In this document: piece after piece, positions 39,448 through 40,335 of the stretch | How the letters are laid out: the number at the start of each line of letters is the position of its first letter | How positions within the stretch are numbered: position 1 is the stretch's first letter | Made by a program: the position numbers and the translations under genes | Sequence record: PP532814.1 | Strand: one strand, 5' to 3' | Length of the DNA: 51,775 bases | From: Escherichia phage vB_EcoP_06 | Notes under the pieces: model-generated | The model's database searches: none | Told to the model about the DNA's origin: nothing | The model's input: the letters and a program-made list of their open reading frames with translations, nothing else

Positions 39448-40335
39448 ATGTTAAAACTTGCTAACATCAAATTCCCGATCACCTTCGAATCTCGCGGCGT
39501 TGGTCACTTCATGTTTTCCGACGAAAATACATGCACTAAGTTTAACGAATACGGCAAGCCTGATGTTTCAACAATGGAGATTGAGCACTTCATTGATGCG
39601 CATAACAAGCACTACAACTCACTCAAAGACTACGCCTACGCAATGCCAGGCTATACATGTTTCCACTACAAGCCATATAAAGGCCAGGTGCTTCCAGTTC
39701 GCTCACCAGAACGCGCAGAGATTCATACGGTCGAGATGAAAACCTGCGACTACAAGAAATTGTGGTGCTTAAACGTGGATAATATCAAGTATCCGATTGT
39801 TTTTCATTGTGGCGGTTCAACAATCAGGTACACATCTCGCGACAATGGCGTTTATAGCGATGGTCAGAAATCCGAGTTGAAAGTTGATTTCTTTGTTAAT
39901 GGTCATAACAAATTCAATCCACACAACGAAAAAGATAAGGTGTATTACGTGGAAGATATTACAAAACACTTGTTTGGAGAAACTCCATTCGGCGGCGGAA
40001 AGACGTCAATTCAACAAATCATTGGCGAGGAGATCCACAAGGCAGCCGTTAAAATGAAAGCGCCTGGAGGCTGGCGTATTGATAATAGCGGCATTGCCTG
40101 TCAAGAAATCGTAACGCATGGCGCAATTGAAGATATGCCAGTTGCAGCCACGCTAAAAGGAGTCCAGCTTGATGATGGTATGTGGTTTGAAGTAACGGCA
40201 AAACCAAAGACGATCGAGATTCATGATGACGTTGTTATTCTTCTGCTTCACTATGGCAGTGCGAAAAACCGGACTGTGGCAGGTGAGATCAGCATCAAGC
40301 GCGGAACGATGGTTAAGTGGAAGGTTAAAGTGTAA
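39448..40335 (+). CDS. hypothetical protein (295 aa) with internal tandem duplication
   Basis: RBS AGGAGAAATAACC; two related segments (NIKFPITFESRG ... FIDAHNKH and NIKYPIVFHCGG ... FVNGHNKF). Confidence 0.5.
   Translation: MLKLANIKFPITFESRGVGHFMFSDENTCTKFNEYGKPDVSTMEIEHFIDAHNKHYNSLKDYAYAMPGYTCFHYKPYKGQVLPVRSPERAEIHTVEMKTCDYKKLWCLNVDNIKYPIVFHCGGSTIRYTSRDNGVYSDGQKSELKVDFFVNGHNKFNPHNEKDKVYYVEDITKHLFGETPFGGGKTSIQQIIGEEIHKAAVKMKAPGGWRIDNSGIACQEIVTHGAIEDMPVAATLKGVQLDDGMWFEVTAKPKTIEIHDDVVILLLHYGSAKNRTVAGEISIKRGTMVKWKVKV

Follow-up and report, generated by a model that had tools for sequence, protein, structure and literature searches.

We analysed a 51,775-nt stretch of DNA from Escherichia phage vB_EcoP_06 (PP532814.1; the whole stretch is called the window below) and focused on the gene at 39448..40335 on the + strand. 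It runs from an ATG at 39448 to a TAA at 40333-40335 and encodes a 295-amino-acid protein (295 codons plus stop), here called the target. The results make it near certain that the target is a flexible three-module protein, in which poorly ordered linkers connect two N-modules to a small SH3-like beta-barrel. The N-modules are two diverged copies of a unit of about 65-70 amino acids, located at residues 1-70 (N1) and 107-174 (N2) with a 36-amino-acid spacer between them. The target is thus a two-N-module member of an already catalogued, uncharacterised T1-like phage family, PHROG 7116, and the duplication itself is ordinary.

Two related modules in the N-terminal part of the target

An earlier note on this DNA had proposed a duplicated domain and named self-alignment and structure prediction as checks. 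We aligned residues 1-105 with residues 106-200 by the Smith-Waterman method. The score was 73, compared with 27 +/- 5.2 for shuffled sequences (z = 8.9; 0 of 2000 shuffles reached 73), and controls against the C-terminal third of the target were null. Comparison of the two copies by blastp gave 27.4% identity across 95 amino acids (E = 7.5e-7). Segment profiles of N1 and N2 built from 119 close homologs matched each other in hhalign with a probability of 94.3% (E = 1e-7), while N versus C controls stayed below 1%. For a hidden Markov model (HMM), we then used only the N-terminal parts of 14 relatives that have a single copy, excluding the window protein, and the model matched both residues 1-70 (E = 1.8e-14) and residues 107-174 (E = 1.1e-21). 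In the AlphaFold2 model, the two copies had the same strand-strand-strand-strand-helix order, in register. The sequence pairs NIKFPITF...HNKH and NIKYPIVF...HNKF corresponded to the module's conserved strand 1 and to the HN motif at the end of its helix. Because the shuffle test, blastp, hhalign and the independent HMM agree, the duplication is real, and both checks came out in favour of the earlier claim.

The description of the protein as built from an internal tandem duplication was nevertheless too strong. The repeat spans only the N-terminal 60% of the target; the last 76 amino acids form a third, unrelated SH3-like domain, which is the conserved functional core.

Structure and conservation of the modules

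We modelled the whole protein with AlphaFold2 using a 34-sequence alignment. The results showed three folded units linked by low-confidence segments at residues 57-103 and 178-217 (predicted local distance difference test score, pLDDT, below 50). Strands were predicted at residues 11-15, 19-23, 29-32 and 38-41 of N1, followed by a helix at 45-59, and at residues 117-120, 125-128 and 134-136 of N2, followed by a helix at 146-156 (pLDDT 90-95). The N-module is marked by an invariant Pro, together with a conserved Ile, two conserved Phe and a conserved HN pair, in the pattern FPITF...F..HNxxNPxN. N2 aligns with the N-module of the T1, LL5 and pSf-2 proteins, and the NPxN part of the motif is gone from N1. 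Both the length and the sequence of the linker that follows N2 differ among family members.

The C-domain, modelled alone, gave a pLDDT of 91.4 and a predicted template modelling score of 0.77, with seven strands. All invariant or near-invariant columns of the family fall in this domain: E228 and P231 are invariant, M230, A234, I256, E257, E280 and G286 are conserved in at least 90% of members, and R285 also reaches 90% in a C-domain-only alignment. These residues lie in the motifs IEDMPxGA, IE(V/I)HDD and GEhNIKRGT. The isoelectric point (pI) of the whole protein is 8.1, with 36 acidic and 38 basic residues, and the barrel, with a pI of 7.1 and equal numbers of acidic and basic residues (10 each), is neutral, its conserved residues being mostly acidic.

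This cluster of conserved residues raises the alternative of a small metal-dependent enzyme, in which E228, E257-H259-D260-D261 and E280 would form a catalytic or metal site. Such an enzyme would work with the neighbouring phosphatase and kinase on nucleotides or on the ends of nucleic acids. The acidic and His residues are indeed invariant or nearly so in a family otherwise only 20% identical per column, and the gene is syntenic with a PNKP-type phosphatase and a deoxynucleoside monophosphate (dNMP) kinase. However, H259, D260 and D261 are replaced in several members (e.g., by DSE, DGE, NGN or SDG), a 75-amino-acid SH3-like barrel is an unlikely enzyme scaffold, and no enzyme family matched by sequence or fold. 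We regard this alternative as very improbable.

Divergence and maintenance of the two copies

No DNA similarity between N1 and N2 was detected by blastn. At the protein level, the two copies are 27-29% identical to each other, whereas either copy reaches 37-42% identity with modules found in single-copy proteins of other lineages. N1-type modules, recognisable by HNxHY..DYAYxMP, serve as the sole N-module in two relatives (P0123 and P0149). In a neighbour-joining tree, neither the first copies nor the second copies formed one group, although this tree is weak because the modules are short (60-70 amino acids). The absent DNA similarity and the closer relatives in other lineages make a recent in-place tandem duplication unlikely, and the copies are also 36 amino acids apart. 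The two-copy form most likely reflects either an old duplication or unequal recombination between diverged alleles, and its origin possibly involved more than one event.

We then examined whether both copies are kept. All modules were intact in the 119 close homologs, among which N1 was the most variable part (mean pairwise identity 0.80, compared with 0.91 for the spacer and about 0.90 for the others). The ratio of nonsynonymous to synonymous substitution rates (dN/dS), estimated pairwise by the Nei-Gojobori method from seven genes, was 0.27 for N1, 0.14 for the spacer, 0.10 for N2, 0.25 for the linker and 0.18 for the C-domain. These results indicate purifying selection on every module, the barrel included; N1 and N2 are both maintained, and neither is decaying. 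No positive selection was detectable in either copy at seven-gene resolution.

An extremely improbable alternative is that the repeat is a chance resemblance, or that N1 is a functionless, decaying remnant. The low identity between the copies, the loss of NPxN from N1 and the variability of N1 could be read in this way. Against it, four independent statistics back homology, N1 is intact in 119 of 119 close two-copy homologs with a dN/dS well below 1, and N1-type modules stand alone in P0123 and P0149. Chance similarity and a dead N1 were thus ruled out by the shuffle z-score, the independent HMM, hhalign and dN/dS.

Three metagenomic variants look like natural deletion or fusion products in which most of the gene is lost. 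The first ~38 amino acids of N1 were joined to the last residues of the PNKP phosphatase in P0153, the first 19 amino acids of the open reading frame (ORF) at 38228-38413 were joined to the last ~27 amino acids of the target in P0155, and the N-terminal half of an unrelated phrog_9595 protein, possibly the upstream neighbour gene, was joined to the barrel in P0132. These variants suggest that the region tolerates deletions of ~1-2 kb, or else that they are assembly chimeras. If they come from viable phages, the target is dispensable.

Architectures and distribution of the family

The target matched PHROG 7116 (function unknown) with E = 2.7e-73, profile positions 1-173 of 173 aligning with residues 107-294. 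This 173-position profile corresponds to N2, the linker and the C-domain, and a second matching stretch lay on N1. A homolog search for the target returned 321 clusters, and an exhaustive search of 1.84 billion cluster representatives returned only 44 clusters at E up to 1e-3, indicating that the family is small. By tblastn, the 295-amino-acid two-copy form was present in about 100 phage records. Matches in T1, pSf-2, LL5, Stevie and others covered residues 108-294 only, in proteins of 143-190 amino acids.

Five architectures were observed. One N-module followed by the C-domain (N-C) is found in the majority of members, T1 included. The N-N-C form comprises the window type, P0122 and the distant P0139, P0147, P0150 and P0154, whereas the C-domain stands alone (~80 amino acids) in P0146, P0152, P0159 and L031. 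An unrelated N-terminus precedes the C-domain in P0132, P0158 and P0164, and an N-module is followed by an unrelated C-terminus in P0163 and in a 197-amino-acid protein of the T1-like contig L032 (IMGVR_UViG_3300048920_000084). In this contig, the family gene lies 3' of the kinase genes and is split in two. Its first part (4325-4915) joins an N-module with a phrog_24212/phrog_2831-like domain, and a separate 96-amino-acid gene with the C-domain only follows at 4989-5276. Because zero, one or two N-modules and different partners on either side occur, N and C appear to be separable modules, with the linker as a recombination-prone joint. None of the fusion partners has a known function. The L032 partner was considered as a MazG-type pyrophosphohydrolase because of a resembling EExGE...E..V pattern (...LILGEEVGEV...RAELVQV...), but it had no Pfam or PDB match and its PHROGs are unannotated, so this identity was rejected.

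Two further sets of candidates were discarded. The apparent three-copy protein P0121 (375 amino acids) proved to be an exact head-to-tail repeat of a partial gene, an artefact of a circularised short contig, and P0157 and P0161 were low-complexity proteins with spurious matches.

The family was confined to T1-like phages. A motif scan covering 185,579 bacterial and archaeal species, with one genome per species, detected no relative, and all 28 IMG/VR matches were on contigs of T1-like size. A homolog was detectable in 223 of about 847 phage records with a T1-type portal and in 0 of about 400 Klebsiella Webervirus records. Tempevirinae/Tunavirinae-type lineages conserve the gene, but it is not core to the phage family. 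Between 12 and 20 records labelled 'Campylobacter phage' (e.g., MG065657, MG065665, MG065673 and MG065687) carried near-identical T1-like coliphage genes, as did OR786094 ('Streptococcus phage MBBL140'), with protein identities of 82-98% in such odd-host records. They are most likely T1-like contaminants or mislabelled hosts.

Genome setting

A search with the 2.5 kb surrounding the target returned 267 matching phage records. The best matches were Salmonella phage slyngel (Hanrivervirus, Tempevirinae, Drexlerviridae) and numerous T1-like phages of Escherichia and Shigella, at 85-93% identity, and the 51.8-kb window looks like a complete, circularly permuted T1-like genome. Its + strand block from 37465 contains small ORFs, a PNKP-type phosphatase, a dNMP kinase, likely terminase ORFs and the portal, and between 37465 and the terminase genes the target is the largest protein of unknown function, as the earlier note had stated for the rightward block. 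The gene order is (DUF7174), small ORFs, target, small ORFs, HAD-type PNKP phosphatase and dNMP kinase. Comparison of 30 loci showed that the target occupies the slot of PHROG 7116 members, that is, the small-ORF block 5' of the PNKP phosphatase and dNMP kinase genes and before the terminase; the distant two-copy members P0139 and P0150 lie in the same block, before the small terminase. Apart from the phosphatase and the kinase, no neighbour has a known function, and no paralog of the target was found elsewhere in the window.

The product of 40797-41351, called 'polynucleotide kinase' in relatives, matched the HAD-type PNKP phosphatase domain only (PF25109, 184 amino acids), and no kinase domain was detected in it; the kinase label is therefore probably an over-annotation. 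A sub-threshold Rfam match to RT-3 RNA at 37608-37767 (+), inside the DUF7174 ORF (20.4 bits compared with a gathering threshold of 40.5; E = 0.076), is probably due to chance.

The promoter-like module and the upstream leader

The + strand block opens with a near-consensus sigma-70 promoter, TTGACA-17-GATAAT, at 37405-37433. We also found a repeated promoter-like module, consisting of a 21-nt box (AATAGCACTTTTTGTTAAAAC), an 18-nt spacer that is often a small hairpin, a -10-like hexamer (CATAAT, TATATT or TACATT), and a CATCGAAACGA-like box of the form CATCGA(A/C)AACGA, followed by a ribosome-binding site and ATG. The window contains 9 copies compared with 0 expected, and every copy is co-oriented with the next gene (Table 1). 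In distant T1-like phages, among them T1, the AATAGCACTTTTTGTTAAAAC box is 100% conserved, and we found no paper containing its sequence. Since TTGTTA lies 22 nt from the -10 hexamer and TAAAAC, at 18 nt, makes a poor -35, the module may need an UP element or a phage activator. The copy closest to the target probably starts a transcript carrying the ORF at 39201-39380 together with the target. From the gene order and this motif, we infer early expression of the target from this promoter class. In this one copy only, a terminator-like hairpin at 38941-38960 with a T-run overlaps the promoter-like box.

The earlier note had also placed the gene behind a long structured leader. A leader of ~200 nt (roughly 39000-39200) does lie upstream, but it directly precedes the ORF at 39201-39380 and not the target. 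The structure of the ORF-free 307 nt at 38894-39200 was not significant (z = -1.6), and the leader had no Rfam match and was not conserved in most relatives. At loci L005 and L007-L010, the box lies 91-92 nt 5' of the ATG of the target homolog. The window and slyngel have an insertion of about 400 nt between box and target, made up of the 200-nt leader and the ORF at 39201-39380, which is missing from these loci.

Table 1. Coordinates of the modules of the target and of nearby and promoter-like features in the window
Feature	Coordinates	Strand	Description
N-module copy 1 (N1)	39448..39657	+	residues 1-70; four short strands and a helix
Spacer/extension	39658..39765	+	residues 71-106; two-copy forms only; low AlphaFold2 confidence yet conserved
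N-module copy 2 (N2)	39766..39969	+	residues 107-174; canonical copy with full HNxxNPxN motif
Variable linker	39970..40104	+	residues 175-219; mostly predicted disordered, one helix
C-domain	40105..40332	+	residues 220-295; 7-stranded SH3-like small beta-barrel
Shine-Dalgarno AGGAG	39435..39439	+	8 nt 5' of the target ATG; read from sequence
59-amino-acid ORF	39201..39380	+	PHROG 8121, function unknown; in slyngel, missing from many relatives
Closest promoter-like copy 5' of target	38950..38994	+	box AATAGCACTTTTTGTTAAAAC 38950-38970, 18-nt spacer, CATAAT 38989-38994
Promoter-like module copies	26214-26238, 37946-37970, 38409-38433, 38946-38970	+	
Promoter-like module copies	30973-30997, 33817-33841, 35218-35242, 35715-35739, 36853-36877	-	

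Searches for a function

We searched the target by hmmscan against Pfam (E up to 10), NCBIfam and PADLOC (defence systems), and no match was found; Pfam searches of 34 family members gave no consistent weak family. Neither sequence nor profile searches of the PDB gave a match, whether the query was the whole protein, the C-domain profile or the N-module profile, and a Foldseek search of the PDB with the full model gave nothing below E = 0.28. At this search sensitivity, the N-module is without a solved relative. A literature search found nothing on the target gene. Neither sequence, structure, fusion partners nor papers pointed to a particular activity.

The modelled C-domain could be superposed on SH3-like and KOW-class barrels of translation proteins, a likeness at the level of fold class that does not demonstrate homology. 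The EF-P/uL2-like fold prompted a further alternative, namely that the barrel binds rRNA, tRNA or mRNA and that the target is an RNA- or ribosome-directed regulator modulating host or phage translation. Three observations count against this. The KOW, EFP_N and Ribosomal_L2_C signatures of Pfam are absent from the barrel (KOW and EFP_N gave nothing even at E up to 10), the PDB profile search was null, and a neutral barrel with mostly acidic conserved residues is unusual for RNA binding. We therefore consider such a regulator rather unlikely.

Proposed role of the target

Our preferred reading, which is tentative and which we place somewhat below an even chance, is that the target, made before the late phase, is a non-enzymatic modular binding or adaptor protein directed at a macromolecule of either the host or the phage. 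Its barrel, which has the conserved Glu/His/Asp cluster and an RG hairpin, would provide the constant partner-binding core, and the N-modules would be accessory binding units that determine avidity or target range by their number and type. The protein would act without catalysis, and it would be expressed from the promoter-like box common to the replication-side genes. The lack of an enzyme family match in Pfam and NCBIfam was counted for the non-enzymatic part of this reading. In being lineage-restricted, modular and apparently dispensable, the target fits an accessory host-interaction gene.

Several points weigh against our reading. The conserved E...E-HDD...E cluster might just as well form a metal or catalytic site. 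The early timing is read only from gene position and a motif that resembles a promoter. The deletion variants were assembled from metagenomes, and they may be chimeric or represent defective genomes. Finally, a neighbour-joining tree of modules of this length is not robust.

The earlier note's suggestion of a host-takeover or anti-defence role is a plausible hypothesis. In its specific form, an effector would bind and neutralise a host immune protein, with the two N-modules covering two variants or targets. Such an effector would suit a gene that is lineage-restricted, accessory at the family level and found in phages only, that has a plastic domain architecture with N1 as its most variable part, and that is located among small genes of unknown function behind a common promoter-like box. 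However, PADLOC defence-related profiles were unmatched, the supplements of one large accessory-gene screen held no match to the target, and dN/dS was well under 1 in each module. In addition, with a pI of 8.1 the target is not an acidic DNA mimic, and the gene is syntenic and nearly always present in Tempevirinae/Tunavirinae, unlike typical patchy anti-defence genes. We consider this specific form unlikely.

A more far-reaching variant, which we think quite improbable, is that the N-module is a previously undescribed small fold acting as a portable targeting module in T1-like phages, and that two-copy proteins are fused diverged alleles engaging two variants of a host target, for instance an immune sensor, a translation factor or a replication factor. 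If a portable N-module were indeed combined with a constant effector or docking barrel, it would offer a modular route to broader counter-defence.

T1-like phages often contaminate laboratories and are candidates for therapy, yet around half of their genes are of unknown function. The present analysis resolves one such hypothetical protein into a portable N-module, present zero, one or two times, and a conserved SH3-like barrel with a small set of conserved residues. It also adds the phylogenetic limits of the family, evidence that both repeats are kept and a likely promoter, which together make the gene a tractable experimental target. The interest is modest and lies in the modular family and in an N-module without a structural relative; an old duplication in an orphan phage protein is by itself unsurprising.

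Comparison with known proteins

The lysis module of Drexlerviridae encodes a standalone SH3 domain protein, which was found by structure-based annotation (KanT1 study, PMC13164509). Like the target barrel, this KanT1 protein is small, of SH3 type and from the same phage family, but it is the product of a different gene beside the lysis cassette. It is not detectably related to the target, because the C-domain profile had no second match in the window.

Domain I of EF-P, EfpL and eIF5A, the C-terminal domain of uL2 and the N-domain of Pelota/Dom34 are 3-17% identical to the target barrel, which amounts to a fold-level likeness only. The barrel is neutral in charge and lacks a counterpart to the modified Lys/Arg loop of EF-P. 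For the N-modules, small uncharacterised phage and bacterial proteins made of tandem beta/alpha units of ~50-60 amino acids, such as YegP/DUF1508, offer the same general design of a short strand-strand-strand-helix repeat.

The true homologs of the target are the PHROG 7116/pVOG VOG7646 proteins, for example AZS32503.1 of phage T1 (161 amino acids; MK213796 2904-3389) and slyngel_70, all of which are annotated as hypothetical. The T1-like homologs have in common with the target the N-module, the variable linker, the C-terminal barrel and the slot 5' of the PNKP phosphatase. Whereas T1, LL5, pSf-2 and most lineages have one N-module, the window type adds N1 and the 36-amino-acid spacer.
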